Made by a program: the position numbers and the translations under genes. The notes beneath the pieces were generated by a model. The model did no database searches and was not told the origin of the DNA. It saw only the letters and a list, made by a program, of their open reading frames with translations. This document shows, piece by piece, positions 21,794-40,268 of a DNA stretch of 64,000 nt (position 1 is its first letter; every line of letters begins with the position of its first letter). Source of the stretch: Escherichia phage isim. The DNA lies in sequence record MN850597.1. One strand, 5' to 3'.

Positions 21794-22635
21794 CAATAGT
21801 TCAGGTAGGTCGTTAAGCTACCCCGCACCATTACGTGCACAGCCATACGGTTTCCTGTATGGATCGGACTATCTCACTACCTTGTTACCAAGGCACCTCT
21901 CATTTCGACCGCACTTGCTGGCCTACTCTACTCGCTTCTTCACACCAAACTATGTTGGAGCTATGCTTTCGATAGTCTCTGAACGTTACTACCAGGTGTA
22001 GTTTTTAGAGATATGTTTCCACTGTCTTCTTTGCTTTATGGCTCTGACCGTCTCATAAGGATACCCAAGATCCCTAATCTCACATTGTCGTAGACCACTC
22101 TGCAACAGTTCACAAATCTCCATTACCTCATCCTCGGTCAGCACAGCGTTGGCATTATACTCACCGACTGGCCTTACTCTGAGCTCATTATCGTAGGCGT
22201 GTTTGATATTTTCACCGGGGGTAGTCCATTCCAGGTTCCAGTATGCATTGTTGTACTTATTTCCATCCTTATGGTTCACCCATGTGAGCTTTTCAGGATC
22301 AGGGTTCGGTACAAAGCATTCAGCAACCAAGTGGTGGACACCTTTTGTGCACTGCCTTCCATCGATGAGCATGGTTACGCAAAGGTAACCTCTACCATTA
22401 TCAAAACAAAACATTGTTGTATGATCACGTTTCGATAAAGGTATTGTTCCATCATCAAACACGATATACCCGTGATAATCAGCTGATCTAGCCATTTTAA
22501 CTACACCCCTTTAGTCTTCGCTGCGGATTAGCATATTGAGTTTTTACCATGTTTAGGTGTAAAAGTCAACTTAGCCTTCCCGTCAATTAAAGAGGTTTTC
22601 GACGTGCATCACTGCACGAAGCCACAATGTTATTT
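21794..22635 (-). mobile_element. putative group I intron (about 842 nt) interrupting the DNA polymerase gene inside motif C and carrying an HNH endonuclease ORF
   Basis: Exon 1 ends ...IIYYH then stops 2 codons later; exon 2 begins DEYQ; proposed 5' junction follows a U and the 3' junction follows a G. Confidence 0.5.
21989..22495 (-). CDS. HNH homing endonuclease (168 aa)
   Basis: VHHLVAECFVPNP...VNHKDGNKYNN...NLEWTTPGEN matches the HNH homing-endonuclease signature. Confidence 0.8.
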   Translation of the reverse strand: MARSADYHGYIVFDDGTIPLSKRDHTTMFCFDNGRGYLCVTMLIDGRQCTKGVHHLVAECFVPNPDPEKLTWVNHKDGNKYNNAYWNLEWTTPGENIKHAYDNELRVRPVGEYNANAVLTEDEVMEICELLQSGLRQCEIRDLGYPYETVRAIKQRRQWKHISKNYTW

Positions 22636-25059
22636 ATGGTAATAGATAATACGACGAACACCTTCATCGTACCACCCACGCTTCACCATTTGGTGGTGCA
22701 TAAGTATCCCAACTAAGTCACACAGCGATGCACCACCATTCTGTTGGTATGCATTAAGTAAAGAGTGTTTAGATCGGGTCCAGATGGCATGACCATCAAA
22801 AGAGTAGATAAACTTCTTACCCGTTGCTTCCCAGAATTTCTCCAGATCCTCTTTACGCCCCTTAAGACCAGGGTTGGCATCCCAAAGTGCATCGATCACC
22901 CTTTGTCCCAACTCTGGAGAGATGTCCAGCATATCTGCAACTTTATCTTTTTGTGCCCCGTACATAACCCCATACGTGATAGGTTTACCGTCGTTACGAG
23001 ACACCTCTCTGCCTGCTACTTTTGTATATGCCTCAGCATTGTTTTGGTGTGCGTCCCCGTTACTTACAACATCATAATACAAGCCGTTGTCGAACTCAAA
23101 GGCACCCCAAGCCCCGATAAGCTGCTCTAAGTTGGACCCGTCAATACCGATCTCAAAGTATCCTGGAGGAACACCCCACAGACTACGCATCTCTTTACCC
23201 ATAACCACTTTAGGAGATGGTTTAGGCATGTTTGCACAAATACTGTGTTTCTGTCTGGAAGTGTTTGTTAATCCAGAGCTTTTAGCAGGAAGCTTATGGT
23301 CAATCTTCAAACGTGGGTGATTAAGAAGACCAGTATCAACCTTATCCTCCTTAATTGGATCAAGGACCGATCTGCGGTTTCGCAATGATAACCACAAGAC
23401 GATATCTTTAGCCATCTCTCCGTTCAATTTTTCAAGATTCGGACATAGGTGTCCAAACGTATCTTTCAGTTGCGGAGAAGTAATAAGTGCTCTGGCTTTT
23501 CTACGTATTTTCCCGAATACTTCCTTTTTAATCCTTTCGGAGTTAGGAAAGCTTCGGAACTTGTGCACGGTTGTCTGGAACTTAGCATCAGTTTTGTTCC
23601 AGAAGTTGATAATCAGGTCACAATACTCTGACTCTAAAAGCTCGTCCATATATGCATATACTCGTGCATCAACATCTGCATCAGGTAGAGCTTTCTTCTT
23701 GCTGTCTTTAGTTACATCCTTAGTTCTCCACATTGTCGGAAGCCAACCAGCACTGATCAGGTATCGCTTAATATCGTCCTGATTGCTGATTTTCATAGGT
23801 ATCTTGCAGTCAGGCATTCGCTTCTGCTGCAGATCGCTTATTGCCTGATCCATCAGCTCTTTAGGTAAAGGTTGTGGTGTGGAGGTGCCCTTAATATAAC
23901 CTCTCAAGAAATCAGCCATCTTGTCTGGGTCTTTGCAGCCCATCTCTTCACACCATTTTATCCCCATTTTACTGACATCTCCTGTGGAGGTAAATGCTCG
24001 CTTAGGTGGGGCTTTGAACTCTAAAGCGCTCATGTCTACAGGATAGCCAAGCTTATCTTTTAACCATTTCCAACCATTATTGGAGATTGTCCCATCTTGG
24101 TTAAACGGCTTTTCAGGGAACTTGGGCCGCTGAGACATTGACAGCTCTTTTAAAGGTAGTTGTGGTTCAACACGATCAGCTATTTCTTTCATCCACGCAT
24201 CGCAACGGTCACGTAAAGCAATAGCCCCGTCTATGTCGAAATACACACCCTGACGGGCCTGCAGCTCCATCAGGAAGTGCTGCAGCATGCCTCGGCGTAA
24301 TGCGTTCTTCCAGGTGATCTTCTTGAACCCTTTTGGCTTCTCTTTGGCAGGATCGTACATAAAGTTCTGCATGTCAGATTTGCCGTAGAATACACCTTTT
24401 GATTCCGCTACCAGCTCTTTCCAGAGCAGCTCCTGGATGATAACGTCCTCGAATACACGATCCACATACTTCCACAGCGGAAGATCGCGCCAGTCATCAA
24501 TTTGAACTTTCTGGTTACCAAGAGCGTAGCCCCATGCCATAAGGCCGTGAGGACCAACAGGCTGCATTTTCTTAGTAACCGGGTTGAATACAGAGTCCGG
24601 GCAACCTTTTGGTAAAGGGCGATCAGGCCACAAGATTCGGCTCATCGCCAACGTATCGAACAGGTTAACCTGGTGGTCGTTGATAGTCCCCATACATTTA
24701 GGATCACGGAACATATCAAAATGAATACCGGATAATCTCTCCATCAGCATAAAGTCATAACTGTAGCAGTTATGGCAGTTCAAAGCTGTTGGTGACCAGT
24801 CGGAATTTCCTGTAAGCCAACCTTCCAACTCCGAAAAATCTGCTATGCGAACTTCAAAATCTTTATAAAGAGTTTTCTTTGCCAGAATAAAGTTCTTAGC
24901 CTTCTCTATATCCTCCTCGGAGTAGTGTGTGCGGTCATTTAGAGGAAGGAACAGCATAAAACGGTTCTTATTCAGCTCTTTAAACAGGCCGCAATGATAA
25001 TAAAGATCTGGGTCTTCCAGCAAACCGGATGACTCAAAATCGAACGACCACATGCTCAT
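22636..25059 (-). CDS. DNA polymerase, family A (T7 gp5-like), N-terminal exon with 3'-5' exonuclease and polymerase motifs A and B; ORF stop at 22630
   Basis: Exo I FDFESSGLLE...HCG (T7 DIEANALLE...HCG), motif A GIDGSNLEQ, motif B RNDGKPITYGVMYGA, then FDGHAIWTRSKHSLLNAY; the HDE motif is missing from this ORF. Confidence 0.85.
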
Positions 25060-25117: not shown

Positions 25118-27196
25118 TTAAAAAGGTGTTTCATCATCCTCAAAACCAGGAACATGGTCAGAGGACGGATCATCGTACTGGAGGTCTTCCTGCGTGTCAA
25201 CAGGCTTAACAGTAGGAGTTACAACCTTATCAGCCACAACCTTACCCATAGGTGTTTCTACAACTGCATGCTCCTGATCCTCAAACATAGCCTGAGGTCT
25301 CCAAACAACCTCCCCACCTTCTCCATCTGTAAACATTTGCATTTCTTTGTCCCAGTACCAATTACTGGCATCATGGAACTTACCTGTATGTGGGTCCATA
25401 ACCAAAGTGTCTGCAATACCTAAAGTTTTTGCTGGACGGTTTTTAAGACCTACCAGTCGGACACGCCCACGAGAACGATCCACCATTTCTTCGGCCTCGA
25501 CACCTATGACTACCCAACTCAACTGTTCAAGCCCAGCCGATCCTCGCAAATTCTCTTTTCGCACAGGATACCAGAAAGGTAACGGGTTACCATCCTTGTC
25601 CTTAGGAGGCACAATCTCTGTACGTTTGAGGTGAGCGATCACCAAGATAAACACATTGAACTGCTTACAAAACGCAGCCAGCTGGGTCATAGCCATGTCC
25701 AGTTCTTTTCGCTCATCCTTAACATTAAGCCCCGAAATTACCATGGACAGGTGATCCAGCACAATATAACGGCAATGGTACAGGCAAACCATTTGCTTAA
25801 GCTTGGTAATCAACTCGTCCACCGGAATAGACCCGAAATGTTTGAACACTTTGATTTTTCCAGCTTTTGCCCATGATTGGTGAATCTCTGCGTGTTCTTG
25901 ATCAGTTAAAAACTGGCTAGGATCTTCAACAAACTCTTTAACATCAAACCCTAGCTGGTTTGCATACAAGGAGTTAATTGCTTCCTCTGGGTCCTCCTCA
26001 AGATGGATCATGCATAGACGATCATCCTCTTCATAGTCATCGGCCTTCGGGCATGTCGGGTCCATCAAGTATCTTGCAATACAATGTTCCAGTTTTTTAG
26101 CTACAGTTGTTTTACCGCCCCCTGATGGCCCTGTAAGCATTACGAGTGTCCCTTTGTGCAAGCCTTTTAGCATTTTTTGCAGTTTTGGAAACTCTGCGCT
26201 GATATCTACCCCGTTGGAAGTCTTTTTCCGCAAAGATTCGATAGAGAAGTCTTCTAAATCCGACACAGCATCAGGCACATACTTAACAGGATGCCGGAAC
26301 ATGTTTACAATATCTTCCAGCTTTTTAGCCTTTAGCATGTCACGGATATCTTTTACACCGTCAGGATCGTTTACCTCACCGGGGTATTCTACGTGGTAAA
26401 CGTTATCAGCCATCAAAAATGCTGCGATATTGTGCGTTGCCTCAACACCTTTAATGACGTGTTTTTGCTTCTCTACCTCGTTAGCTGCATCGTTATCCAT
26501 TGCCAGCACAACTGTTCCATAGCTACGGATAAACTTCTCATTGTTTGCAAAAGTATCTACTGCGTTTGCACATCCACAGTTAATTCCAACAAAAGGCAGG
26601 CATGGTTTTCCTGCCAGATCGCCACCGTTGATAACTGCATCGATCCCGTCCTGGACCTCTTTAGCCCACTGTTTCACCTTTGCCGGGGCTTTAGCGTTGG
26701 TGAGAATCCCTTTTACTTGTATCTGATATGCAGCCTGCCATGCTGCAATAACATCACCTTCTCCCTCACAAACGTTAATCTGCTTACGGTTGTTGGAAGA
26801 TGCACACAGCTTTTGACCAAACATCTGAGAGTTAGCCTTTACTATGCCAACAACGGAGAAATGGCCTCTTTGCTCTTTAGGAATCGTCCAGTCACGCTTT
26901 TTGAAACCGGACAGATTTCCGTAGCGGTCGTAATATGGGAAATATGTTGCAGTGACTGTCACACCATCTTCTTGGGATAATGCTGATCGCACACCAAAAT
27001 ATTGTGCAGCCATCAGACCGATATTTTGTTGTGGGACAGGGACAATTTTAGTATTTTCTAAAACAGTCTCTACAGTTTCAACTTCTTTTTCATCACGATA
27101 GTCTCGTTTCACACTTCCCCCACTTTTATACTTAGTTGCTTTCGGGTTTGGCTCACCGAAACGGTTGTATGCAGATGCCATAAATTTACTTCCCAT
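25118..27196 (-). CDS. DNA primase/helicase (TOPRIM primase plus DnaB-like helicase, T7 gp4-like) with acidic C-terminal tail ending ...EDDETPF (692 aa)
   Basis: TOPRIM EGEGD and MDNDAAN; Walker A GPSGGGKTT; acidic tail ending in Phe. Confidence 0.8.
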   Translation of the reverse strand: MGSKFMASAYNRFGEPNPKATKYKSGGSVKRDYRDEKEVETVETVLENTKIVPVPQQNIGLMAAQYFGVRSALSQEDGVTVTATYFPYYDRYGNLSGFKKRDWTIPKEQRGHFSVVGIVKANSQMFGQKLCASSNNRKQINVCEGEGDVIAAWQAAYQIQVKGILTNAKAPAKVKQWAKEVQDGIDAVINGGDLAGKPCLPFVGINCGCANAVDTFANNEKFIRSYGTVVLAMDNDAANEVEKQKHVIKGVEATHNIAAFLMADNVYHVEYPGEVNDPDGVKDIRDMLKAKKLEDIVNMFRHPVKYVPDAVSDLEDFSIESLRKKTSNGVDISAEFPKLQKMLKGLHKGTLVMLTGPSGGGKTTVAKKLEHCIARYLMDPTCPKADDYEEDDRLCMIHLEEDPEEAINSLYANQLGFDVKEFVEDPSQFLTDQEHAEIHQSWAKAGKIKVFKHFGSIPVDELITKLKQMVCLYHCRYIVLDHLSMVISGLNVKDERKELDMAMTQLAAFCKQFNVFILVIAHLKRTEIVPPKDKDGNPLPFWYPVRKENLRGSAGLEQLSWVVIGVEAEEMVDRSRGRVRLVGLKNRPAKTLGIADTLVMDPHTGKFHDASNWYWDKEMQMFTDGEGGEVVWRPQAMFEDQEHAVVETPMGKVVADKVVTPTVKPVDTQEDLQYDDPSSDHVPGFEDDETPF

Positions 27197-27950
27197 TAAT
27201 TCTGCTCCTTACTACAGGCTCGTTTGCTAAGAATACGGCTTTTGCCCAGCCACGTGGTGTGAGGCTTCGAATCATCTTCGTTCTTGCACTCTTTCCACCC
27301 AGCTTGGCGTGTTGCATGGAATACCCGCTAACCACGTCAACTATTTGCGGGACAGGTTTTGTGGCCGGGATTATAAATCCATTACCTATCCAGCCGCAAG
27401 TTATTTTTGGATAGGCATCACGTGGAGCTATAAATTCAGGAAACCATGGGTTTACATCATCTTCCGGTAAATACCCGCCATAGTCAGAAGGATGAAAACG
27501 GTAATCAGGTTTGCGCCACAGTGTGGACATAACACCTACAGGATTCTCTACATGCCACGGGCAATCGTAAATCTCTCCCAGCTCTTCCGCAACCCGAGCA
27601 TCCCTTACAGCATTAATTTGGATCATGGGATCCTTAGCCAGCTTTTTCTTAAAATGTGCAGCACCTGATACCGCTAAATGCGTGCACGGAGGAAATGCAA
27701 GAATAAAGTCTGGAGCTGGGTACATGCAAAAAGTTTCCTGAGGGAACCATGGGTCAATCCAATAATCCACATAGTGAATGTTGGGATGATCGGTTATCAC
27801 CTCTGCATAACTGCCGTGATCAGCACCTTCTGCATTAAAGCACAGGCACAGATACCCAGCTTTTGCCCAGTCAATGACTGCACCACCAGATCCGTCAAAT
27901 AGGCTCCACACAACACCTTTGTGGTAGTGTTCTTTGTAGATAAATTTCAA
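27186..27950 (-). CDS. DNA (cytosine-5)-methyltransferase-like protein, short form (about 254 aa from TTG; ORF track starts at 27980)
   Basis: Motif I LFDGSGG, motif IV FPPCTH (PC), motif VI HVENPVG (ENV); RBS AGGAGA 7 nt before TTG at 27950; too short for a full target-recognition domain. Confidence 0.55.
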   Translation of the reverse strand: MKFIYKEHYHKGVVWSLFDGSGGAVIDWAKAGYLCLCFNAEGADHGSYAEVITDHPNIHYVDYWIDPWFPQETFCMYPAPDFILAFPPCTHLAVSGAAHFKKKLAKDPMIQINAVRDARVAEELGEIYDCPWHVENPVGVMSTLWRKPDYRFHPSDYGGYLPEDDVNPWFPEFIAPRDAYPKITCGWIGNGFIIPATKPVPQIVDVVSGYSMQHAKLGGKSARTKMIRSLTPRGWAKAVFLANEPVVRSRINGK

Positions 27951-27974
27951 TTTGCTGTCTCCTAATGCAAAAAG

Positions 27975-28000
27975 CCCCACCCTTTCGGGCAGGGCCTAGT
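27975..28000 (-). terminator. GAAA-tetraloop hairpin plus U-run, second identical copy
   Basis: Same 20-nt sequence as 16999-17018; lies between the 28002 stop and the methyltransferase RBS. Confidence 0.55.
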
Positions 28001-28895: not shown

Positions 28896-29239
28896 CAGAA
28901 ACCTCCCACTTCTTCAGCAAATGCAGCTGCTGTCGTCGCTGCATCCAGATAGGACTCTAGTTCACGGGCTGCACGTTTGTAAATTGAGTGTCGCAAATCG
29001 TTTGGCAGTTGGTGGAAGTCCACCTCTTCACCGTTGTGGTAAACATACACATCGGTAATTTGTCTAAATCCGTAATAGTCAACATCAGAATCACGGCACT
29101 CTGGGTCTGGCAACTGGACAACTGCCTGAGCTTCCACAGTGAACATATCGTCAAGTTCGAAATCGATTTCAAAAGTGTATGGTTTATAACATTTCATCAT
29201 TTGATTGTACTCTTTATTGATCAGACTTATCTTTCGCAA
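28895..29239 (-). CDS. hypothetical protein (114 aa)
   Basis: ORF; start overlaps the methyltransferase stop. Confidence 0.55.
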   Translation of the reverse strand: MRKISLINKEYNQMMKCYKPYTFEIDFELDDMFTVEAQAVVQLPDPECRDSDVDYYGFRQITDVYVYHNGEEVDFHQLPNDLRHSIYKRAARELESYLDAATTAAAFAEEVGGF

Positions 29240-30539
29240 TTAAGGTCGGGGCAAGTTTGTAATAACGGAAGCCACCACCACCTTGCCAGTTTACAGACTT
29301 AGAAATACCACCTTGATCTTCACCATCGATCACTTTTTCCAAGCGCGGAATAATATGGGTATGACAATGATCACCTAGCTCGATTGAGATCCAACGTCTT
29401 TTCATCTTGTGAGCTACAGCAGCAGTAGTTCCCGAACCACCGAATGAATCCAATACCAAATCGCCTTCTCGCGTACACATTTCGAAAATTCGCTTCAAAA
29501 GCGCTTCTGGTTTTTTCCCATTTTTGAAACTAACGCCGCCTTCATTTGCTATTCCATTCCAACTAATGTCTGTCCAAACATCAGTTATTAGTTCCGCAGG
29601 TTGCATATCACCGTCAATTTCCAAAAGCCTGTTGGAGTAAAAGACCATTTGCCTACCATTTACGATATAAAATCCTTCAACATCTTCATTTGGATGTACA
29701 TAAACCTTATCCCTATCTTTCTTTGACTTCTCGATAGTTTCTTTTCTCTTTATTTTAGCACCACCGCCGATTGCAACAGATTGAAATACACGTTCTGCAT
29801 TATCAATTGCGAATTGTGCTAATTCATCATCGAATGTATCAGGCAGTTTTTTCTTGGCCTCTTTTGCATCTTTATAGCCATTGGCCTTTGCAAACGCATC
29901 GGCAATACCGCACCACGTCCAATTTTTATAATGGTCATCCGGGTTTAATAGGTATTTGTTATATCCTGTATCATACCCTTTAGGTATATAGATTTTGTTA
30001 AGCGGTTTCTGGGTGCGATCTTTTGCATATACAAGCAAAAAGTTTGCTGTGGAGAAAACTGTGGCTCCTGTTGCCTTAAATCCCGAAGGGGAATTTGTGG
30101 TCATCGATATGGTATTTAACTGATTTGCACGACCAAAAATCTCGTCCATCAAAACTTTTAAATACGCCATTTCGCAATCATCTAAGTGAACGAATATTAC
30201 CCCATCATCACTTAGAAGATTACGAATTATTTCTAACCTATCCCTCATTAAGCCCAGCCAAATGGAATGCTCAAGGCTATCATCGTAGTGCTCAAAAGCC
30301 CTTCCAGTATTGAATGGTGGGTCTATGTAAACACACTTCACTTTGCCTGCATACTCTTGCTCTAGCGCCTTCAATGCTAATAAGTTATCTCCAAAAATCA
30401 GTTTATTATCAAAAATATCGTTTTCGGTCACTTTCTGGCTGTGGTAAGACTTGCTAGAATCTTCTAACAAAATGTGCGGCTCTAACTTTTTGCGCTCGTT
30501 TTTACCTATCCAGGTTAGTTCTAATTTGGTTTTGCTCAT
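29214..30539 (-). CDS. N6-adenine (or N4-cytosine) DNA methyltransferase, beta-class, type III Mod-like, orphan (441 aa)
   Basis: Motif IV VYIDPPFNTG precedes motif I LVLDSFGGSGTT; no adjacent restriction gene. Confidence 0.8.
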   Translation of the reverse strand: MSKTKLELTWIGKNERKKLEPHILLEDSSKSYHSQKVTENDIFDNKLIFGDNLLALKALEQEYAGKVKCVYIDPPFNTGRAFEHYDDSLEHSIWLGLMRDRLEIIRNLLSDDGVIFVHLDDCEMAYLKVLMDEIFGRANQLNTISMTTNSPSGFKATGATVFSTANFLLVYAKDRTQKPLNKIYIPKGYDTGYNKYLLNPDDHYKNWTWCGIADAFAKANGYKDAKEAKKKLPDTFDDELAQFAIDNAERVFQSVAIGGGAKIKRKETIEKSKKDRDKVYVHPNEDVEGFYIVNGRQMVFYSNRLLEIDGDMQPAELITDVWTDISWNGIANEGGVSFKNGKKPEALLKRIFEMCTREGDLVLDSFGGSGTTAAVAHKMKRRWISIELGDHCHTHIIPRLEKVIDGEDQGGISKSVNWQGGGGFRYYKLAPTLIAKDKSDQ

Positions 30540-30600
30540 CGTTTGGTGCTCTCCTTAGTTTTTTGTGGGGAGGAGGCCTCCCCTTTATACTCACATCTTA

Positions 30601-30942
30601 CTACTCAAGGTCTTCAGAGTCAAGCTCAAAAAGAATCAAACTGTGCATGCCTGCAGAGAGATCAACACACCCTGCAACAATAAGGGTCTGATAGTAAGGT
30701 TCAGCACCCTCGATGTCTTCGTTAAAATCCACAACAAGGTAGTCACCTTTGTTAAAGGTGTATTTGTCCGATGTGAATGCAAAACCTGCCCAGTCCCCTA
30801 CTGCAGGATCTTTATCAGTCACCTTTGTTAGCAGTAGATCTTTTTCACGAGATCTTTTAGTAAAATCGTGAATCACAACATCCTTCTCTTCAGGAGTTGG
30901 ATTGCCACACACGTAGTTAACGATATTTCTCCACAAACTCAT
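30601..30942 (-). CDS. hypothetical protein (113 aa)
   Basis: ORF in series. Confidence 0.5.
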   Translation of the reverse strand: MSLWRNIVNYVCGNPTPEEKDVVIHDFTKRSREKDLLLTKVTDKDPAVGDWAGFAFTSDKYTFNKGDYLVVDFNEDIEGAEPYYQTLIVAGCVDLSAGMHSLILFELDSEDLE

Positions 30943-32309
30943 ACGTCCCCCTCTTCGGCTCTGGTTTCAAAATCTTTCCTGACAATTTTGTCTAAGTCAG
31001 GGAATGTTGTATTGTAAAACTCTACGACTCGCGGGTCAACAATAATGTCAACTTCTCTTAGTGGACGCAACAAGTTTATTCCTTGTATTGTCTTAACTCT
31101 GCTCAAAGCGACATACGTCATCCCAGGAGAGAAAGCTCCGTTCTTTCCAAGGTCTAGGTTGTAACAATCTAGCGTAAGTCCTTGACTTTTATGAGATGTT
31201 ACGGCGTACCCAGATTTCAGAGGAAGTTGCTTGTATGACCCAATCACTACCCTCTCTATAAACTTCTCCATCTTCCTTTCTGCAATGTTGTATCTCTGAG
31301 ATGGCTTATACTCGTTATTCTCCCACAACCTCTGCTCTATGTCAACCTGTGTTCCATCTTCAAGCTCTACCACCACCGCCTTGTTCTTAAATTTAACAAT
31401 TGTGGCACGTGTTCCGTTAACATAATAAGGTACTTTGTGCGTCGGGTCAACATCGTTGGCGGTTATCATAACTTTCATGCCAATTTTCAACTTCATCTCC
31501 TGCTCAACTGGCAGGGTGGAGGGAAACTTACCCTTCATTTCCCCAGTGTATACCTTCTCCGGGGCGTTGATGGCATCATAGAACCTTCTGTTCACTTCCT
31601 CTGCTTGTTTGTTGGTGGCGCAAATTGTGAGAGCGTCTGTTGGTACACCGCCTTTGTAACAGCGAGCATTAAGTTCTGCTACAACCTCTTTTATGCGACG
31701 ACCCTCACGAACACAGTTGAGCATTGTGGCAAATCGAATAGACTCCTGTCGGAACTGATCTATTAGGGCTATGTTGTGGAGGTCAAGCTCTTTCCAAGAT
31801 TCGGTATAGCAACACAGGTCTGTATGGTAGAAGTTGAAGTAGGCTTCCTTCTCCATAGAAGAGACAACAGGAGGTGCCTGGTAAAAATCGCCAAACAATA
31901 TGACCTGTATGCCTCCGAAAGGTTTGTCATTTTTTCGAAGGAAGCGAAGTTTCCTATCCATCTCTATAAACTTATCAGCACGGATCATAGAGATTTCATC
32001 GATAATCAGGATGGTAAATGCCTTGCTTTTCAAAGGCTTTGCTGTTTTTGCCCTTATTGCGGTCCAGTCTGACTCCATGCTCACACCTGCTGCAAGATCG
32101 AAGGTTCGGTGTGCTGTTGCTCCATTAACGTTTAAAGCGGCTACCCCTGTCGGGGCAACCGTTATGCAAGAGTCTCCATACATTGACTGGATCATGTTGA
32201 TGAGGTACGTCTTCCCACAACCTGCGGGTCCTGAAACGAAGACATTCTCACCGCTCATGATTGCAACGAGGGCAGCATCTGTGCCTACATCATACTGCCC
32301 TTTTTCCAT
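30939..32309 (-). CDS. SF1 helicase, PIF1/RecD/Dda-like (456 aa)
   Basis: Walker A VSGPAGCGKTY; Walker B-like IIDEISM; C-terminal ...YVALSRV... typical of RecD/Dda-type helicases. Confidence 0.8.
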   Translation of the reverse strand: MEKGQYDVGTDAALVAIMSGENVFVSGPAGCGKTYLINMIQSMYGDSCITVAPTGVAALNVNGATAHRTFDLAAGVSMESDWTAIRAKTAKPLKSKAFTILIIDEISMIRADKFIEMDRKLRFLRKNDKPFGGIQVILFGDFYQAPPVVSSMEKEAYFNFYHTDLCCYTESWKELDLHNIALIDQFRQESIRFATMLNCVREGRRIKEVVAELNARCYKGGVPTDALTICATNKQAEEVNRRFYDAINAPEKVYTGEMKGKFPSTLPVEQEMKLKIGMKVMITANDVDPTHKVPYYVNGTRATIVKFKNKAVVVELEDGTQVDIEQRLWENNEYKPSQRYNIAERKMEKFIERVVIGSYKQLPLKSGYAVTSHKSQGLTLDCYNLDLGKNGAFSPGMTYVALSRVKTIQGINLLRPLREVDIIVDPRVVEFYNTTFPDLDKIVRKDFETRAEEGDV

Positions 32310-33514
32310 TACGCCTCCTCGTAAAGAATGTCGATAGTGTTACCGTCTCGGTCAACCACGTATTCAATCGGGTCTCCGTCCTTGCGTGCTTCCGGAGCTA
32401 CCACAATCTCATAGCGGCATGCACGGCACTTAGCGCTATTGTGTTGGTATGGCACACTAACCACATCTGCAGGGTCAACCATGACAGTCATTACAGTGCC
32501 GTAGCTCTTCGCATACTCTTTGCTGGCGCAGTGTAAGCCATAGGAGCACGCAGCTTCAGGATCATCCTCTACAAAGTTACGAGGCATGGATACAAAAGCA
32601 CCTTGGTATTGTGGGACTTTACCACTGTGCCAATCCACCCACTTGCTACCGTTAAACTGAACCCCTTTGTAGCAAATGATTCGACCATCTTCTGCAATCT
32701 GAATATCATTGGCCTGCATAAAATCGTAGAGCATGTTTACAGATTTTGCAGAAGGATTGCGTAGCAGGCGAACGAGGAATTTCACATAGCGGTCATCCAG
32801 CGTTCCGTCTGCATAATCTTTCTCAATTTTCTTTGCAATGGTGGATCGCATCTCTACACCGTAGTAGTAGAGCTTACCATCTTTCATGATCAGGTTGTCT
32901 GCAAGTGTGGTGAACTCATTCTTGCGTTCCAGCCAGACAAGGATTTCACCAATTGCCTCGTCATATTCCTGAACAGAGATATGGTCGAAGACTTTCTGGT
33001 AAACTTCCTCACTTTCGCTGCGGCGAATTTCAAAAATGCCTTCGTTGCAGGTGATCTGGAGGAGTTCCCCACAAATAACTACCAAAGGCTCGATGCTTCG
33101 AGTTTGTTGCTGAGACACACTGCTCACCACCTCCAGCACCGGATCTTTGACTTCTACTAAAGGTTCTTCTGACTTGATTGCCACCCCAGTGAACCCCACA
33201 CCGTGAACAACACACAGTGGGTATACCACGCCCCAACGTTTAACGGAACCTTCGCCTAAGTCTAAGATCATGGCGTACTTACCATTATCTTCCAATCCAT
33301 AGCGGAATAAACGGGCCTCTTCGCGGGTTTCAAAATCCTCACGGGTGTAGCAGACGCTGTCACGGTCAGGATCGAACAACTCTGGGGCACCCACTGCCAG
33401 TGTCCAGGTTGTGTCGCCTTTCTCAATGGCACATGTGAAACCCTTCTTCTCAAGTTCTGCACGGCGGTCTCGTGCTTCTTTACGGGTTTTGAAATGTTCG
33501 TAGATGAAAATCAT
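32309..33514 (-). CDS. hypothetical protein, possible rIIB-like partner of the upstream GHKL ATPase (401 aa)
   Basis: No motif recognised; assignment rests on adjacency and same orientation. Confidence 0.5.
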   Translation of the reverse strand: MIFIYEHFKTRKEARDRRAELEKKGFTCAIEKGDTTWTLAVGAPELFDPDRDSVCYTREDFETREEARLFRYGLEDNGKYAMILDLGEGSVKRWGVVYPLCVVHGVGFTGVAIKSEEPLVEVKDPVLEVVSSVSQQQTRSIEPLVVICGELLQITCNEGIFEIRRSESEEVYQKVFDHISVQEYDEAIGEILVWLERKNEFTTLADNLIMKDGKLYYYGVEMRSTIAKKIEKDYADGTLDDRYVKFLVRLLRNPSAKSVNMLYDFMQANDIQIAEDGRIICYKGVQFNGSKWVDWHSGKVPQYQGAFVSMPRNFVEDDPEAACSYGLHCASKEYAKSYGTVMTVMVDPADVVSVPYQHNSAKCRACRYEIVVAPEARKDGDPIEYVVDRDGNTIDILYEEA

Positions 33515-33524
33515 CTTGGTCTCC

Positions 33525-35507
33525 TTATTTGATGTTATTCTTTGTATCGATCAGTTCACGGTATTCAATCATAGCAGGAGTGTCCCAATATTTCAAGCCC
33601 ACATGCTTCAAAAGTGGATATTTCTTTTCCAATCTTGCAATATAGGCCTTCCCGCACTTAACCCGGTTGGCGATTAAGATTTTGGCACGATGATTTAGCT
33701 CACTGTGCTTCCACGCGGTGTTACCTTCCCACTTGTGGAAATGTGGCCGATAATTTCCAAAATCCTGCATGGGGATAATTTTCCCTAATTGTCTATACAG
33801 GCTGTCATATGAAGTTTCATTTGCTGCGCGAGTCAGTAAGAATTTCCAGGCGTCCTCTTTCAACAAATGTTCCACATTTTTCTCTGTAACATACTGGCAA
33901 TCAGGATCAGTCCAAAGCAGACGGGATTCTGATACCAGGTACAGGTCTTCCCCTTCAGGAATCTGGAGTGCCGCACGCACACGGTCATAATTTTGCTGGT
34001 AGATGTTACTCAGCTGTCCCAGCCAACAACTTCCACGTTGGATATCACCCTCATAAGGAATGCAGTGCTTAATCTTCTTGAACTCTGCCTTAGTAATACG
34101 TTCACGACGGAAGTAACCATCCTTCTCAAGCTTTTTAACCCAATAACCTGGCTCGTAATGAGTTTTTGTTTCACCTTTCTTCGCAGGTCGGCGAGGGAGC
34201 TCTGATAACAATTTGACAGTATCTGCAAAGAACGGATGGTGTGCCGCCTCTTTAAACTCTTTCACTAGATCCGTGTTCCGGCAATAGAAAACGTTGCGTC
34301 CGGTGATTTCGCTTAAATAGTTACACTTATTTCGGTTATATTTGCCATCTCCGTCGTTAAATACAAGGTATACACCTCGTAAGAACTCCGACTTTCCGTA
34401 ACGAGCATAGCCTATGCGGCCTTTATTTAAGCCTCCAGCGAAAATTTCACAATCGCCTAAGTCGCCAAGCCCTGTTTCTTCCCATCTGTCCCACATAAAA
34501 TTCTTACCGAAGATGTGCCCGAACACTCCACTGTTCTTCATCATCTCACGTGCTTCTGAGGATGTTTTTGCTGTCTCCAATTCCGCAACAACTTCTGCCC
34601 CACGAAGACGGATACCCTCTTTGACAAAAGCCTCCAGACGCTCTTGGAATCCACCATCGTCGTGCCCCTCTATGGTCCATTCGCGCCCAGGGTTAATATT
34701 GCAATCCCCGATAGGGATCTCTACACAGATTGCAGGGTAGTCTGTCAATGTTTCCAGAAACTTAGAGCGGTAAGGTTGGTGACCCATCACAACACGGCTC
34801 TCATCAGAACTGGTATAACCTTTCAGGATGGTCATTTTCCAACCATCCTTCTCGTAGTGATACTGCGCCTCAACCTTGTCACCTTCCAGCATCTTACTGG
34901 TCATAGGGTCGGTAACGGTAAACGGAAACTTTGCATAGCGTAGGCATGACGCAATAGCAGTGCGATATTTCAGGACATGCTCTTTCTTAACATGGAACTG
35001 AACTTTTACCCCGTTGTGCTCTTCAGTCTTCCGCTCGCGGATCTTGGTAACGTTTGGGATACCCTGATCCAAGAACAATAGATATGTGCTTTCAACACCA
35101 TTGTGCACACTGATAACATCGAAAGTGTCCACCATGCTGAACGGAGCCTTTGAACCAACACCTTTATTACCTACCAGAGCGTTGCTGTTGCGCTTGGTTG
35201 ACTCCCCGAGGTTCATGAAAGTGTTGCGGACCATCTCTTCTGACATGCCCAATCCAACGTCCTGCACAAAGAAGTATGGTTCAAGGTCTGTAGGGGAGTG
35301 AATGATGATCGGTACATCACCCCGTCCAGACTCAACATGAGAGTCCACAGCATTGAAGATTGGTTCACGGCAGCTTGCCAGCACCTTATCTTCGTAAATC
35401 CCTTTAATGATTAGCCCAAAAGTCTCTTTGTTCAGAGAAATTGAGCCCCTGGTGACCTCCATATTTCCGGTTAGTACTGCTTTAGTTTCATTACTGTTTA
35501 CAATCAT
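33525..35507 (-). CDS. GHKL-family (HATPase_c) ATPase, possibly rIIA-like (660 aa)
   Basis: N-box-like FNAVDSH and G1-box-like VQDVGLGMS near the N-terminus. Confidence 0.55.
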   Translation of the reverse strand: MIVNSNETKAVLTGNMEVTRGSISLNKETFGLIIKGIYEDKVLASCREPIFNAVDSHVESGRGDVPIIIHSPTDLEPYFFVQDVGLGMSEEMVRNTFMNLGESTKRNSNALVGNKGVGSKAPFSMVDTFDVISVHNGVESTYLLFLDQGIPNVTKIRERKTEEHNGVKVQFHVKKEHVLKYRTAIASCLRYAKFPFTVTDPMTSKMLEGDKVEAQYHYEKDGWKMTILKGYTSSDESRVVMGHQPYRSKFLETLTDYPAICVEIPIGDCNINPGREWTIEGHDDGGFQERLEAFVKEGIRLRGAEVVAELETAKTSSEAREMMKNSGVFGHIFGKNFMWDRWEETGLGDLGDCEIFAGGLNKGRIGYARYGKSEFLRGVYLVFNDGDGKYNRNKCNYLSEITGRNVFYCRNTDLVKEFKEAAHHPFFADTVKLLSELPRRPAKKGETKTHYEPGYWVKKLEKDGYFRRERITKAEFKKIKHCIPYEGDIQRGSCWLGQLSNIYQQNYDRVRAALQIPEGEDLYLVSESRLLWTDPDCQYVTEKNVEHLLKEDAWKFLLTRAANETSYDSLYRQLGKIIPMQDFGNYRPHFHKWEGNTAWKHSELNHRAKILIANRVKCGKAYIARLEKKYPLLKHVGLKYWDTPAMIEYRELIDTKNNIK

Positions 35508-36004
35508 TTATTGCGCTCCTTGTAGTAGATATGACTCCCGAACTGAGCTGTCCTCTGCATCTTTTTTGCCCATTTCGGTCGTACTTTGGTTGTATGGTAG
35601 TGTGTTGCTCCACCTGTTATGTCCATAGCCATGTATGCAACATGGTTGTTATTATAGACCTTTAGAAGCATCTTTGCAAGACTTTTAGCGTGATCCCATG
35701 AATCTTTTTCTGTCACCTTAAAAGTTTTGCCGTGGTTTGTCCACGAAAACTGGTTAGGTTGGTAGACAATCTTTCTTATGGTGTCTGGGTATTTGGGGTG
35801 AGATTTCCTGTTTAGGGTGGCAAACCCAGATGCCAGCATACCCATCGTGCCATCCCCTCTAGCTTCCCTGTAGATATTGCATGCTAGAATGTTTTCCTTA
35901 GTATCTGATGGCTTGCAAGTATGGTATACTTTTTGTTTTGGTGCTGCAACAACAGGCAGCGATAAAAATGCGCTCAAAATAATAGCAAAGATCTTAATTT
36001 TCAC
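35504..36004 (-). CDS. secreted SleB-like cell-wall hydrolase (166 aa; GTG start)
   Basis: Signal peptide MKIKIFAIILSAFLSLPVVAA; NIYREARGDG...ATLNR...YPDTI...VYQPNQFSW matches the SleB-type motif pattern. Confidence 0.7.
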   Translation of the reverse strand: MKIKIFAIILSAFLSLPVVAAPKQKVYHTCKPSDTKENILACNIYREARGDGTMGMLASGFATLNRKSHPKYPDTIRKIVYQPNQFSWTNHGKTFKVTEKDSWDHAKSLAKMLLKVYNNNHVAYMAMDITGGATHYHTTKVRPKWAKKMQRTAQFGSHIYYKERNK

Positions 36005-36024
36005 AATAACTCCAAATAGAAAAT

Positions 36025-36045
36025 CCCCGCCGAAGCGGGGGAGGT
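36025..36045 (-). terminator. UUCG-tetraloop hairpin (CCCCCGC-UUCG-GCGGGG) plus U-rich tract; near-identical copy at 62436
   Basis: Read directly; follows the 36054 stop on the minus strand. Confidence 0.55.
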
Positions 36046-36053
36046 CTTAGAAA

Positions 36054-36434
36054 TTAATCGTAGTGTGCCAAAATCTCTCCATCGTTGCAAGTTCCCTCTA
36101 CAAAGTTATGAAGATTCATGCACTCATCTTGATAGAAGAATTTACCGCTTTTCAGCCGTAAGCCAAACAACTCCGCATCTCCACGATGGCAAGCCTCTAC
36201 AAGTTCATAGATTTCATACGGCAACTCTCCGTCGTCATGGAAGAACCCAGCCTTATCGTTGACATAGATGAAGAAATAATCACTGCTGTCGCAAGCGTCC
36301 AATATTTTAAACCAGATTTCATCTACATCTTTTTCTCGGATATCGATCACGCAAGTGGAGCTGCATTCGTACTCCTTCTCCGGCTCCTCGGTCAATACCA
36401 CCAGGTAGTTTCCCCGCTTACCTACTTTAGCCAT
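36054..36434 (-). CDS. hypothetical acidic protein (126 aa)
   Basis: ORF in series. Confidence 0.55.
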   Translation of the reverse strand: MAKVGKRGNYLVVLTEEPEKEYECSSTCVIDIREKDVDEIWFKILDACDSSDYFFIYVNDKAGFFHDDGELPYEIYELVEACHRGDAELFGLRLKSGKFFYQDECMNLHNFVEGTCNDGEILAHYD

Positions 36435-36443
36435 ACAACCTCC

Positions 36444-37628
36444 TTAAGCTTTAGCCAAAATGGCGCTAAACTCTTCACCAAACTCTTTTACAATCTTCAT
36501 CAGGTTTGGGTATGCTTTGATCAGCTGAGCAACGATCTTGTCACGACCTTTACCGATAAGCAAGGCATTTCCTAAGGCATTAGGTTTCATCATCGCCATA
36601 AAGACTGAAAATACAAAATCTCGGTTCTCGTCCTTGAAGTTTTCCCAAAGGAAATCGAGAAAGTTTGCCACACAGCTAACAAGATCTTCGTCGGAGATAC
36701 TTGCATTTTCCATCATATTACGAATAGCGATGCAACCTTCAGATCCAAGAATCCACAAGATGTCTGGCTGTTTAGGACCTACGTATTCTTTGCAACCTCC
36801 TGCCATAATCCGACCGATTTCCGGTAAGTTGCGTTTCTTGGTGTGGTAAGTCCAGATCTCTACCGCTGCAGTGTGACCAATAGCACCTTGCAGAAGAACA
36901 CGGGCCATAGCGTCAGAAATAATACCGCTGTCAAAATCGTGCAAGATATCAGATGCAGCAACCCAAGATCGCGGTGTGGCAAAAGATGGACAATTAATCT
37001 CAGCCATGGCCTCATAATTATCGATAGCTGATGGAACTCTTTTCAGATATCCAATTACAGAGGAGTGCACCCCATTAAGGAATGCGTAGTCCTCAATAAA
37101 CACCTCTGCATTGCTTGTAACCTCTACAATGATAAAACGGTTAGCCAGAGGGGCTTCGAGCGCCGAAAGAACCGCACCATCTGTAGAACGGTTACCAGCA
37201 GCCACAAAAACAGACCCCTTAGGGAATGCATAAGTACCGCACTTGTGGTCAAGCATAATTTGCATTGCAACCTTTTGTAGGTAGTTATCTGCATGAGTGA
37301 GCTCATCCAGAAAGATAATTCCGCTCCAGTCAGGATCCGCAGGCCAAAATTCTGGAATTGCAAACACTGTACGTGTAGTTCCATCCGCTTCTACAGGGAT
37401 AGGTAGCCCAGATAAGTCGGCAGGATCTTTATCTGACAGTCGCACGTCAACAAGGTTGTCATCTCGCTCACCGAACATATTATCAGCGATCTGCTTCATC
37501 ACCTGGCTTTTACCCACACCCATTGGTCCCAAAATTAGGACAGATCGGCTATGACGTTGGGCAAACTGAATAATAGCTGGCAACTCACGGACAGTGATTT
37601 GACCACTTTCGAATACGTTTCTTGACAT
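36444..37628 (-). CDS. MoxR-like AAA+ ATPase (CobS-like) (394 aa)
   Basis: Walker A LILGPMGVGKSQ; Walker B-like IIFLDELTH. Confidence 0.8.
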   Translation of the reverse strand: MSRNVFESGQITVRELPAIIQFAQRHSRSVLILGPMGVGKSQVMKQIADNMFGERDDNLVDVRLSDKDPADLSGLPIPVEADGTTRTVFAIPEFWPADPDWSGIIFLDELTHADNYLQKVAMQIMLDHKCGTYAFPKGSVFVAAGNRSTDGAVLSALEAPLANRFIIVEVTSNAEVFIEDYAFLNGVHSSVIGYLKRVPSAIDNYEAMAEINCPSFATPRSWVAASDILHDFDSGIISDAMARVLLQGAIGHTAAVEIWTYHTKKRNLPEIGRIMAGGCKEYVGPKQPDILWILGSEGCIAIRNMMENASISDEDLVSCVANFLDFLWENFKDENRDFVFSVFMAMMKPNALGNALLIGKGRDKIVAQLIKAYPNLMKIVKEFGEEFSAILAKA

Positions 37629-37897
37629 TAGTAAAAGTCCTCTACTTGTGTGTAAGTGTTTTCAAAGTTTTCCAAAACAGATATCACATCGAATCTGTCA
37701 ATATCATACGTGACTCTCCAGTTGTACGCAACCCTTTCTGCTGTTGCCTCTTCTGGCGCTAGTCGTCTGCTGGCATAAAAGAGTGTTGGAGTACACTTTC
37801 TTGCTTGCCCTCTAACTTTCCCATAATAATATCTGTGAATATCTTTGTCAAAATTTAACTCTTTTTCTGCACGAAGTTCATATTGCTGGTATAACAT
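37628..37897 (-). CDS. hypothetical protein (89 aa)
   Basis: ORF in series. Confidence 0.5.
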   Translation of the reverse strand: MLYQQYELRAEKELNFDKDIHRYYYGKVRGQARKCTPTLFYASRRLAPEEATAERVAYNWRVTYDIDRFDVISVLENFENTYTQVEDFY

Positions 37898-37941
37898 CTC
37901 TACTACTCCTTAAGCGGCATCCTTGCCGCCATTCCTGCCCA

Positions 37942-38322
37942 CTAAAATGCAGTCCGAATCCAGACAAGGTTCTTATCTGCCCAATCATAGAGGCAAGTCA
38001 TTGCGCTATTGAATTGCTCACACGGAGGATAATCTTCTTCCATCTGGCGCATAGCAGAGCCTTGTGGGTAAAGCTCCCGTGCTGCAAGCCACGCATCGTA
38101 GTCATCCACGGTATCGAAGTAGTATACAACATCCTCCAACTCAGGATCGAACTTTGAATTATCAGGATCCAGTTGTTCAGGGAACTTGGAGCGTAACTTG
38201 CCAGCCACAATGCTTGCCAACTCGCTAACATGCTTATTGTCCCACTCTACTAGTTTCCCGTCTTCAGCGATGCGTCCTAACCACTGATCATGAAGGTCAA
38301 CTGTTGTCTTCCACCGGGCCAT
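37942..38322 (-). CDS. hypothetical protein (126 aa)
   Basis: ORF in series. Confidence 0.55.
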   Translation of the reverse strand: MARWKTTVDLHDQWLGRIAEDGKLVEWDNKHVSELASIVAGKLRSKFPEQLDPDNSKFDPELEDVVYYFDTVDDYDAWLAARELYPQGSAMRQMEEDYPPCEQFNSAMTCLYDWADKNLVWIRTAF

Positions 38323-38324
38323 TA

Positions 38325-38582
38325 TCAGTCCACCTCTTCTTCTCGTTGCAGTTCAAGATACCCGTAGGTCTGGATATCTTCAAGGGTGTGGAAATCCCCA
38401 TCTGCCGCTAAGGCACGAACAACTTGGCACAAAACTTTATGAGGGACTTCATCCAGACCCAGATTCAGTGCAGGGAACACCTTATCTAAGTCAACAAAAT
38501 AAACGAACTGTAGCTCACCAGCTTCAAAAGGTGTATCTTCAATAAACATCTTCTCGGCATTAGTCAAGATCTGCACTTTCAT
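38325..38582 (-). CDS. hypothetical protein (85 aa)
   Basis: ORF in series. Confidence 0.5.
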   Translation of the reverse strand: MKVQILTNAEKMFIEDTPFEAGELQFVYFVDLDKVFPALNLGLDEVPHKVLCQVVRALAADGDFHTLEDIQTYGYLELQREEEVD

Positions 38583-38959
38583 TATTCTGCCTCCTCTTCT
38601 TTTTCTTCGGCGTTAGTTTCAGTGCTACCCCACTCTGGAGTTTCCACCTCGATAGTAAACTCACGCACTACACGGTAATTGCCCATGAAGCGCTCCACCT
38701 CGTCAAGGCTTATGGCGAGGCCATTGGAAACCAGGTCTGCAGCACCCTCTTCTACCAGATAGTCCAGATTGGCTTCCAAAGCTTCAGGCTCGAACCCTGT
38801 CAATGCAATCAGATAACCTTTCCCTTCATCAGGTAGGACAATACAGCCCAACTGATTTTCTTTAAAAAGGCAGTGACCATCATTATTGATGGGGTGTTCA
38901 TTGCAGTAAATAGCTGCACGATAAGTAGCTTTAGACATCGGTAAGGCCTCCTTAGGCAA
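38582..38959 (-). CDS. hypothetical protein (125 aa)
   Basis: ORF in series. Confidence 0.55.
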   Translation of the reverse strand: MPKEALPMSKATYRAAIYCNEHPINNDGHCLFKENQLGCIVLPDEGKGYLIALTGFEPEALEANLDYLVEEGAADLVSNGLAISLDEVERFMGNYRVVREFTIEVETPEWGSTETNAEEKEEEAE

Positions 38960-39230
38960 TTGTCATTTTACATTCTTGAAATTTTAACACAAGACGGTGA
39001 TTGTGTCTAGTGTCTAAAAAGATTTTTTCAACCATCAGGCACACGGTATAACCGTCCATCTTGTTAACAACAAAATCTCCAGGGTGAGGGAGGATGTCCC
39101 CTGGATTGGGGAAACATAACCCGCTCAAGAAGGCATCATCGGTGGTGGACTTAATGGATTTCCACACACTATCTGCCTGAACATTCTCACCAACATAATA
39201 TACATTACCACATGCCTTCATCATAGTCAA
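38952..39230 (-). CDS. hypothetical protein (92 aa)
   Basis: ORF in series. Confidence 0.5.
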   Translation of the reverse strand: MTMMKACGNVYYVGENVQADSVWKSIKSTTDDAFLSGLCFPNPGDILPHPGDFVVNKMDGYTVCLMVEKIFLDTRHNHRLVLKFQECKMTIA

Positions 39231-40126
39231 ACCCTCGCATAAATTAAACTTGTATCAGTATACTTTTTTAATGGGTAAATATCCTGTCCATAGATGCAAT
39301 CATTAAACACCTCATCTACCCAAAGGCTACACTTATATCCCATCATTTCTAAAACACCCATCTCTTCTTCGGTAAACTTATCACCGCTCTTGCAAGATGT
39401 CAATACCTCATTCTGAACTCTTGCTACCTCGAAGCGGTTATTGGCAATATCGCTATTGGCGATCAAATACTCACCTAGAGGGTGTGCGGCATTAAAGATG
39501 CACAGTGGACGGCTGACGTAATAGTCTCCAGGTGTATAAAAATTATTGAGGTCTTTCACTAGAACATTCTTATCAGTCACTTCATTTATAACATCATGCA
39601 TATCGCACATCTTTATATGTTTGAGGATTCCATCCCCCATCACAAAATAAAAACTTGCTGAAACACTTTCGGCATAGATCTTACTAGATCCGTTGTAGTT
39701 GTATTTTACTCGGATGCTAACGGGGGTTTTTCCTGTCGCGTTAGCCATCATCCAAAGAAATGGCAGCTCATACTTCTCCTCTGAGGAAACAAAAGGTGAA
39801 GTAGCCAGAGATCGAAAACCTCCAGAGAAGTTGAAAGTTACAGAACCGCTCCGGCGGTATGATACTGCGTATTCTACTTTTATATCAACGTATCCGTTGG
39901 AGTAAGTATGCCCTCCATTATCAAGGTATGTCCACTTATCAGACCCGGATACCAACCTCCGCTCAATTACCTTCATCACCATAGGAATTAGCGGATTAGT
40001 ACAAACCGATCTTGAAGTAGCTTTATCATCCAAAGCCTCGTAAATTGCAGAAAGGATGTCCCCAGCTGAAAGATTGGTTGTTATGTCCTGTTTCCACCGC
40101 GTACTAAAACTGTTAAGATTTGCCAT
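39227..40126 (-). CDS. hypothetical protein (299 aa), first gene of the minus block at the strand switch
   Basis: ORF with RBS; promoter TTGACT-N17-TATAGT upstream. Confidence 0.6.
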   Translation of the reverse strand: MANLNSFSTRWKQDITTNLSAGDILSAIYEALDDKATSRSVCTNPLIPMVMKVIERRLVSGSDKWTYLDNGGHTYSNGYVDIKVEYAVSYRRSGSVTFNFSGGFRSLATSPFVSSEEKYELPFLWMMANATGKTPVSIRVKYNYNGSSKIYAESVSASFYFVMGDGILKHIKMCDMHDVINEVTDKNVLVKDLNNFYTPGDYYVSRPLCIFNAAHPLGEYLIANSDIANNRFEVARVQNEVLTSCKSGDKFTEEEMGVLEMMGYKCSLWVDEVFNDCIYGQDIYPLKKYTDTSLIYARV

Positions 40127-40166
40127 AAGTAAGTGCTCCTATGTTAGTTTTCTTTCGAATGGGTGC

Positions 40167-40237
40167 ACTATATCGGAGATTTAGAGTAAAGTCAACACGT
40201 TTTTGATGTTGACATCTATTGAAACAATTGATACGAT
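40167..40237. promoter_or_regulatory. Divergent sigma70-like promoter pair at the strand switch (minus: TTGACT-N17-TATAGT at 40167-40195; plus: TTGACA-N17-TACGAT at 40209-40237)
   Basis: Hexamers read directly on both strands between divergently oriented gene blocks. Confidence 0.5.
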
Positions 40238-40268
40238 TTCTTCACTTACAGGGCACGAGAGACAACTC

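Follow-up and report, generated by a model that had tools for sequence, protein, structure and literature searches.

A Probable rIIA-rIIB Gene Pair in Escherichia Phage isim: Conserved Cores and Lineage-Specific Ends

Introduction

The rIIA and rIIB genes are a textbook phage gene pair, and how the rII products work has been an open question since Benzer. Two adjacent genes of Escherichia phage isim raise this question once more. We analysed a stretch of 64,000 nucleotides of this phage (sequence record MN850597.1), which is referred to as the window in its whole length, and asked whether the genes at positions 32309-35507 belong to the rII family and what such a pair would do. A preliminary description, made from the sequence alone, had suggested an rIIA/rIIB-like pair consisting of a 660-residue ATPase and a 401-residue partner. 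Both open reading frames are real, positions 32309-35507 span exactly the two of them, and they are co-oriented, with the 660-residue gene upstream. The best explanation, which we hold with a probability of roughly 0.85, is that they are the rIIA and rIIB genes of an rV5-like coliphage (Vequintavirus) and homologues of the rII locus of T4.

The rIIAB locus protects T4 from lambda RexAB, a system of abortive infection in whose presence it allows T-even phages to grow; many large myoviruses and N4 also have the locus (PMC8594841). About 5% of phages carry rIIB, which forms an operon with rIIA (PMC13434031). A T6 phage with an rIIB-null mutation is RexAB-sensitive, and expression of RIIB alone activates the CARD/gasdermin defence and is toxic to E. 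coli (PMC10312443). The rIIA protein has been described as a counter-defence protein with a GHKL domain and a C-terminal domain that varies greatly (PMC7824862), and genome papers on Vequintavirus mention the rII locus (PMC13211470).

Results and Discussion

Identity of the Gene Pair

The rIIA homologue (33525..35507, minus strand; 660 residues, 75.8 kDa, pI 8.3, ATG start) is identified by a profile match and by public annotation. Against PHROGs, its residues 1-658 matched positions 1-724 of the 725 positions of phrog_612 ("RIIA lysis inhibitor") with an E-value of 1.3e-124, and phrog_612 is also the best PHROG of T4 rIIA (E = 9e-250). BLASTP against T4 rIIA gave 28% identity over residues 1-198 (E = 3e-21), and when a profile of 30 rIIA homologues was compared with T4 rIIA by hhalign, the alignment covered residues 1-310 with a probability of 99.9% (E = 4.6e-37).

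The rIIB homologue (32309..33514, minus strand; 401 residues, 45.8 kDa, pI 4.9, ATG start) matched phrog_609 ("RIIB lysis inhibitor") with residues 132-375 (E = 1.3e-61), again the profile that T4 rIIB matches best, and BLASTP against T4 rIIB gave 37% identity over about 200 residues (172-371, E = 4e-39). A protein 100% identical to it in a large protein collection (P0001) carries a precomputed assignment to the Pfam family PF26926 (Phage_T4_rIIB), and public annotation also calls it rIIB. Residues ~132-375 are therefore a conserved rIIB domain, and the earlier statement that the 401-residue protein has no recognisable motif does not hold. No significant Pfam match was obtained for rIIB in our scan of the window, because the library used was without the newer PF26926 model. 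In NCBIfam, rIIB had no match and rIIA had only matches of the GHKL type, far below the cut-offs, and a sequence search of the PDB with rIIA and rIIB gave nothing significant (best E = 0.07 and 0.16).

The preliminary description had named an empty profile search as the result that would speak against an rIIA/rIIB-like pair; the search strongly matched both families, and the gene order is as in T4, where rIIA (NP_049616, 725 residues) lies directly upstream of rIIB in the same orientation. The spacer between the two genes of the window is only 10 nucleotides long (33515..33524, minus strand), with a Shine-Dalgarno-like AAGGAG that overlaps the rIIA stop codon, and the sequence read across the junction is ...AAATAAGGAGACCAAGATG... 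In RB43, RIIA and RIIB are one polypeptide (Q56C47 in BFVD, 1049 residues, "RIIA-RIIB membrane-associated"), whereas the genes of the window are separate; this polypeptide carries the rIIB domain found in the window (Foldseek E = 3e-18). The existence of such a fusion is probably the reason why the phrog_609 profile (1055 columns) matches both rIIA, at its N-terminus, and rIIB, at its C-terminus. Because a natural fusion of this kind is classical evidence for joint action, the rIIA and rIIB proteins of the window probably work together as well. Two relatives, L005 (rIIB 49% identical) and L004 (35%), likewise have a HATPase_c_3 protein of ~660-670 residues beside a Phage_T4_rIIB protein of ~405 residues.

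The identity of the pair is already known, in that it is annotated in near-identical public Vequintavirus genomes. A megablast search with the region 32309-35507 (3.2 kb) found 120 phage records at 90-99% identity, nearly all of them from rV5-like coliphages (genus Vequintavirus). Escherichia phage MaxTheCat was the best match (Bas57 of the BASEL collection, MZ501094; 99.0%), in which the genes (loci bas57_0065/0066) are labelled "membrane integrity protector rIIA" and "rIIB". Other matching records use "rIIA lysis inhibitor / rIIB lysis inhibitor" or "RIIA protector from prophage-induced early lysis", and an rIIA annotation is present in MZ501094, OR062530, NC_041869 and further records. Other Vequintavirinae, such as MaxTheCat, APECc02 and vB_EcoM_366V, share 96-99% DNA identity, the order hydrolase-rIIA-rIIB-helicase and the rIIA/rIIB or "membrane integrity protector" labels, and with regard to the two rII genes there is essentially no difference between them and the window.

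Sixteen unannotated GenBank records that match the rII region (MG0656xx, e.g., MG065644 and MG065690) are labelled "Campylobacter phage" with Campylobacter jejuni as the host. Those listed are 96-97% identical to the region and all are at least 90% identical, and 13 of the 16 also match the methyltransferase segment discussed below. The genomes are evidently Vequintavirus, and the Campylobacter host label looks doubtful.

The ATPase Module of the rIIA Homologue

The N-terminal ~310 residues of rIIA are an intact two-domain ATPase module, a GHKL domain followed by a transducer-like domain, with all catalytic motifs kept. The two boxes previously noticed in the 660-residue product, FNAVDSH (residues 51-57) and VQDVGLGMS (residues 81-89), are present and form part of GHKL motifs I and II. 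In full, motif I reads E48xxxN52xxD55, motif II D83xGxG87 and motif III G113xxGxG118. The Pfam model HATPase_c_3 matched residues 50-147 with 34.9 bits against a curated cut-off of 25 (E = 1.8e-8), and structure prediction, which had been proposed as a check, confirmed the GHKL fold on an AlphaFold2 (AF2) model.

The GHKL (Bergerat-fold) ATP-binding domain with motifs I-III comprises residues ~26-190 (34938..35432, minus strand), and the second, transducer-like domain comprises residues ~191-310 (34578..34937, minus strand) and is conserved with T4 rIIA, which has the same N-terminal GHKL domain with motifs I-III and a second domain. In the 30 rIIA homologues, motifs I-III are invariant, and 17 of the 21 invariant columns belong to the ATP-binding motifs or to the stretches that separate them (R47, E48, N52, A53, D55, D83, G85, G87, S103, T104, K105, G113, G116 and G118). 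Three further invariant residues, Y246, R275 and E276, are in the second domain, where R275/E276 align with the "SRE" of T4 rIIA. Because the ATP-binding motifs are invariant across the homologues, rIIA is likely an active ATPase, as judged from its sequence.

Hsp90, topoisomerase II/ParE, MutL and MORC are ATP-driven dimerising clamps which share the GHKL and transducer architecture. The best structural relatives of the rIIA ATPase module on the AF2 model were found in this group (ParE, the T6 topoisomerase II ATPase, MutL and MORC), and rIIA has the ATPase module of the GHL-type ATPases in general (Hsp90/TRAP1, ParE/GyrB/topoisomerase II, MutL, MORC, SMCHD1). However, it shares with them only 9-16% sequence identity, the sequence-profile matches are below threshold, and no family signature or C-terminal domain of the GHL families (Toprim, MutL dimerisation/endonuclease, Hsp90 M/C, CW/coiled coil) was found in rIIA. 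The protein is thus a member of none of these families, and the likeness is limited to the ATPase module.

The remaining half of rIIA (residues ~311-660; 33528..34577, minus strand) is lineage-specific. It is confidently modelled, as a mixed alpha/beta part and then a helical bundle, and it is the least conserved part of the protein; among solved structures (PDB) it had no match, and it could not be aligned to T4 rIIA either pairwise or by profile. The whole protein is 65 residues shorter than its T4 counterpart, with the C-terminal ~350 residues not alignable, which is consistent with the variable C-terminal domain described for rIIA (PMC7824862).

The rIIB Homologue

The conserved rIIB domain spans residues ~144-400 (32315..33085, minus strand), with a T4-alignable core at 172-371. 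T4 rIIB (NP_049889, 312 residues) and the rIIB of the window share the invariant stretches NPSxKxV..LxDF, MPRxxVxD..CSxGLH and VxVxPxDxVSxP. The structure model of rIIB has a mean predicted local distance difference test (pLDDT) score of 73, with residues ~144-400 mostly at 80-95 and a low-confidence linker at ~102-143. Compared with BFVD, the model gave fold matches to rIIB proteins with E-values from 1e-54 to 3e-8, and all significant matches that bear a functional name are of the rIIB type, except one labelled as a transposase.

When 1.84 billion cluster representatives were searched exhaustively with HMMER, 7565 proteins had the rIIB domain at E ≤ 0.001, and 6054 of them reached E ≤ 1e-10; the domain lies at either end of proteins 220-690 residues long. 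The rIIB-domain family is thus very large, with promiscuous, widely varying extensions.

One metagenomic protein (P0005, 498 residues, on a 3.3-kb contig) has several TPR-repeat Pfam domains together with an rIIB domain 99% identical to that of the window over 55% of the query. It is either a true fusion or a chimeric assembly.

The rIIB of the window is 89 residues longer than T4 rIIB and aligns to it only from about residue 143 on. The N-terminus of T4 rIIB is helix-turn-helix (HTH)-like, with a sub-threshold HTH match (HTH_7, E = 5.6e-5) and a match to phrog_867 ("DNA binding domain"), while the rIIB of the window has instead two beta-alpha-beta-beta repeats, followed by the linker of ~40 residues. 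These tandem modules (residues 3-101, i.e., 3-42 and 55-101; 33212..33508, minus strand) each contain F-x-T/S-R-x-E/D-A-R, and their reading as an internal repeat is supported by BLASTP between two sequences (E = 1e-4) and by aligning both blocks with hhalign (E = 1.3e-5). The Pfam scan found no HTH segment of the T4 type in the rIIB of the window; such a segment characterises the prototype rather than the family as a whole. At the other end, a C-terminal extension of ~30 residues is common only to close relatives. By the alignments, the pair departs from T4 only in the parts known to be variable, namely the rIIA C-terminal half and the rIIB N-terminus.

A SPOR (PF05036) peptidoglycan-binding identity was considered for the N-terminal modules and rejected, as the match (E = 0.0014) was below the Pfam gathering score and the fold match was non-specific; of this assignment, the sequence supports only the internal repeat. 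The same match has a bearing on another explanation of the locus, namely that the pair is a lysis-timing module which regulates lysis directly, together with the upstream cell-wall hydrolase. PHROGs and RefSeq call the family "lysis inhibitor", and the start codon of rIIA shares ATGA with the end of the Hydrolase_2 gene (35504..36004), whose stop codon it overlaps, an adjacency which recurs in L004. Even with these points and the weak SPOR-like match in its favour, we consider direct lysis timing very unlikely.

Function and Mechanism

Judged by homology with T4 and T6, the pair most likely serves, early on, to counter abortive infection of the Rex-like kind that depolarises the membrane. The rIIA and rIIB proteins together would act early in infection and keep the Rex-type systems of resident prophages from killing the cell by depolarisation, at the cost that rIIB itself may be sensed by other defences, such as the CARD/gasdermin systems.

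For the molecular step, the binding and hydrolysis of ATP by rIIA could, jointly with rIIB, clamp or remodel a partner, which would probably be a DNA-protein intermediate formed in replication or recombination; the clamping would mask or remove the infection signal that triggers the sensor of abortive infection. The variable ends (the rIIA C-terminus and the rIIB N-terminus) would then set lineage-specific targets. A DNA-protein partner is suggested because the relatives with the same ATPase fold act on DNA, because T4 rIIB has an HTH-like N-terminus and because the genes are placed among replication genes in the window and beside topoisomerase genes in T4. An ATP-driven clamp which hides a defence signal on a DNA-protein intermediate is the least certain step of the proposal; we prefer it to other mechanisms, yet regard it as rather less likely than not.

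Some of the same observations would also fit a replication or repair accessory, i.e., a topoisomerase/MutL-like GHKL enzyme with a 401-residue DNA-binding partner and no role in resistance to exclusion. The genes lie between a MoxR-type ATPase and the PIF1/Dda helicase, primase-helicase and DNA polymerase; ParE, the T6 topoisomerase II ATPase, MutL and MORC act on DNA; T4 rIIA adjoins the topoisomerase genes 60 and 39, T4 rIIB has the HTH-like N-terminus, and rIIB has been treated as a possible transcription factor (PMC7824862). However, the Toprim, DNA-gate and MutL C-terminal endonuclease domains were not detected, the family-level matches are to rIIA/rIIB and not to topoisomerases or MutL (the NCBIfam matches being far below the cut-offs), and rII mutants of T4 and T6 grow normally on hosts without Rex (PMC8594841, PMC10312443). 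Additionally, such an accessory overlaps with the DNA-protein mechanism proposed here and differs from it only in denying the counter-defence role. It seems very unlikely to us that the pair has a replication function of this sort alone.

The main alternative to the DNA-protein mechanism is a direct action at the inner membrane, on a component of an ion channel, which fits the classical description of a "membrane integrity protector". It finds no support in the sequence, which can speak only to membrane-spanning segments and not to peripheral association: none was convincingly predicted in either protein by the Kyte-Doolittle scale with a 19-residue window, where the maximum was 0.83 for rIIA, and for rIIB it was a borderline 1.69 at residues 95-113, which fall largely in the low-pLDDT segment of the model.

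Several points weigh against a Rex-directed counter-defence role inherited from T4. In the literature we found no experiment on the rII genes of Vequintavirus, so that the phenotype (a need for the pair on lambda RexAB lysogens, and rapid-lysis plaques of the mutants) is known for T4/T6 only and is carried over at 28-37% identity. Neither the rIIA C-terminal half nor the rIIB N-terminus is homologous to its T4 counterpart, and the target could thus differ from that of T4. No solved structure is related to the conserved rIIB domain, and the classical membrane association finds no sequence support in rIIA or rIIB, given the lack of a predicted transmembrane segment. Finally, the BASEL study saw an effect of RexAB on only 2-3 phages in all (PMC8594841), and with so narrow an effect Rex may not be the natural target.

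The last points lead to a pair which was retained but has diverged in function, with conserved cores and different ends, and which counteracts a defence unrelated to Rex. The variable regions that cannot be aligned to T4, the many different extensions joined to the rIIB domain among the 7565 cluster representatives, and the very narrow target range of RexAB (PMC8594841) all speak for such a divergence. There is, however, no positive evidence for any alternative target, and what is conserved is precisely the core domains with their invariant residues. We consider a changed target somewhat unlikely, and an early counter-defence of the Rex-directed type remains our preferred reading of the function.

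As the pair is already annotated in public genomes, it carries little weight as a discovery, and the remaining value is descriptive: the ATPase module of rIIA, the rIIB domain without a counterpart among solved structures, and the outer regions swapped wholesale between phage lineages. Only the lineage-specific exchange of the ends is mildly novel, and it might encode target specificity. To hypothesize in more concrete terms, the Vequintavirus lineage would have exchanged the HTH of rIIB for the beta-alpha-beta-beta (SPOR/ferredoxin-half-like) pair and the C-terminal half of rIIA for ~350 unrelated residues, and these ends would be the determinants of counter-defence specificity; we hold this to be unlikely. 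If it were true, the host defence which the Vequintavirus pair neutralises, or which senses it, would be one other than Rex, and comparing lineages could show how the two conserved cores, the GHL-type ATPase and that of rIIB, function. Since rIIB both defeats RexAB and triggers the CARD/gasdermin defence, tractable non-T4 versions from the BASEL collection could serve as comparators.

Gene Neighbourhood

The rII locus of the window is inside a replication gene block, with the primase-helicase and DNA polymerase genes further downstream. Upstream of rIIA there is a 166-residue Hydrolase_2 protein (35504-36004, minus strand; SleB-like cell-wall hydrolase, E = 2.1e-19), whereas T4 has rIIA.1 and gene 60 at this place. 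Downstream, the rIIB stop codon overlaps the start of the PIF1/Dda-like helicase gene (TAATG). The genes are tightly linked, and this overlap, together with the ATGA overlap at the other side of the pair, suggests co-translation.

The order hydrolase, rIIA, rIIB and PIF1/Dda-like helicase is kept in MaxTheCat and in the distant relative L004; in L005, rIIA, rIIB and the helicase are kept, and no hydrolase is beside rIIA. The idea that a GHKL ATPase next to a Dda-like helicase and two methyltransferases is an unusual combination is ruled out by this conserved synteny, which is ordinary for Vequintavirus, and by the fact that the methyltransferase is an insertion absent from MaxTheCat. As for the two methyltransferases themselves, the first stands, as a 441-residue N6_N4 methyltransferase by Pfam (29214..30539, minus strand, E = 5.9e-42). 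The second, a 264-residue protein (27186-27980, minus strand), corresponds by position to the "Dcm-like C5 cytosine methyltransferase" of MaxTheCat and rests on this annotation only, with no Pfam match at E ≤ 0.001 in the library used. The gene of the first is downstream of rIIB, with two genes (the helicase and a 113-residue reading frame) in between, and the corresponding 1.3-kb segment (29203-30535), missing in MaxTheCat, is present in 87 other rV5-like records at 90-100% identity. It is a variably present accessory gene outside the rII module.

A search with the PADLOC defence-system models gave nothing meaningful, as expected for phage counter-defence genes. In a scan for promoters and terminators over 30500-40500, the counts were not above the shuffled expectation (20 vs. 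17 ± 4.3 and 10 vs. 8.1 ± 3.0, respectively). The 49-nucleotide gap just upstream of the hydrolase contains a hairpin rich in G+C, CCCCGC-TTCG-GCGGGG, at 36025-36040 (minus strand), with a T-run behind it (ATTTTCTATT), and by its sequence it may be an intrinsic terminator between the MoxR-ATPase block and the hydrolase-rIIA-rIIB-helicase block. The hydrolase protein itself has a hydrophobic, signal-peptide-like N-terminus (MKIKIFAIILSAFLSLPVVAAP).

Further away in the replication block, the window has an insertion of ~640 bp (21928-22570) compared with MaxTheCat, located just downstream of the reading frame of an 809-residue family-A DNA polymerase (22630..25059). It contains a 168-residue reading frame (21989..22495, minus strand) with a sub-threshold match to the HNH_3 endonuclease family (E = 7.9e-5), and the polymerase coding sequence of MaxTheCat is annotated as two joined pieces. 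The insertion looks like an intron bearing a homing endonuclease, or a split in the polymerase gene.

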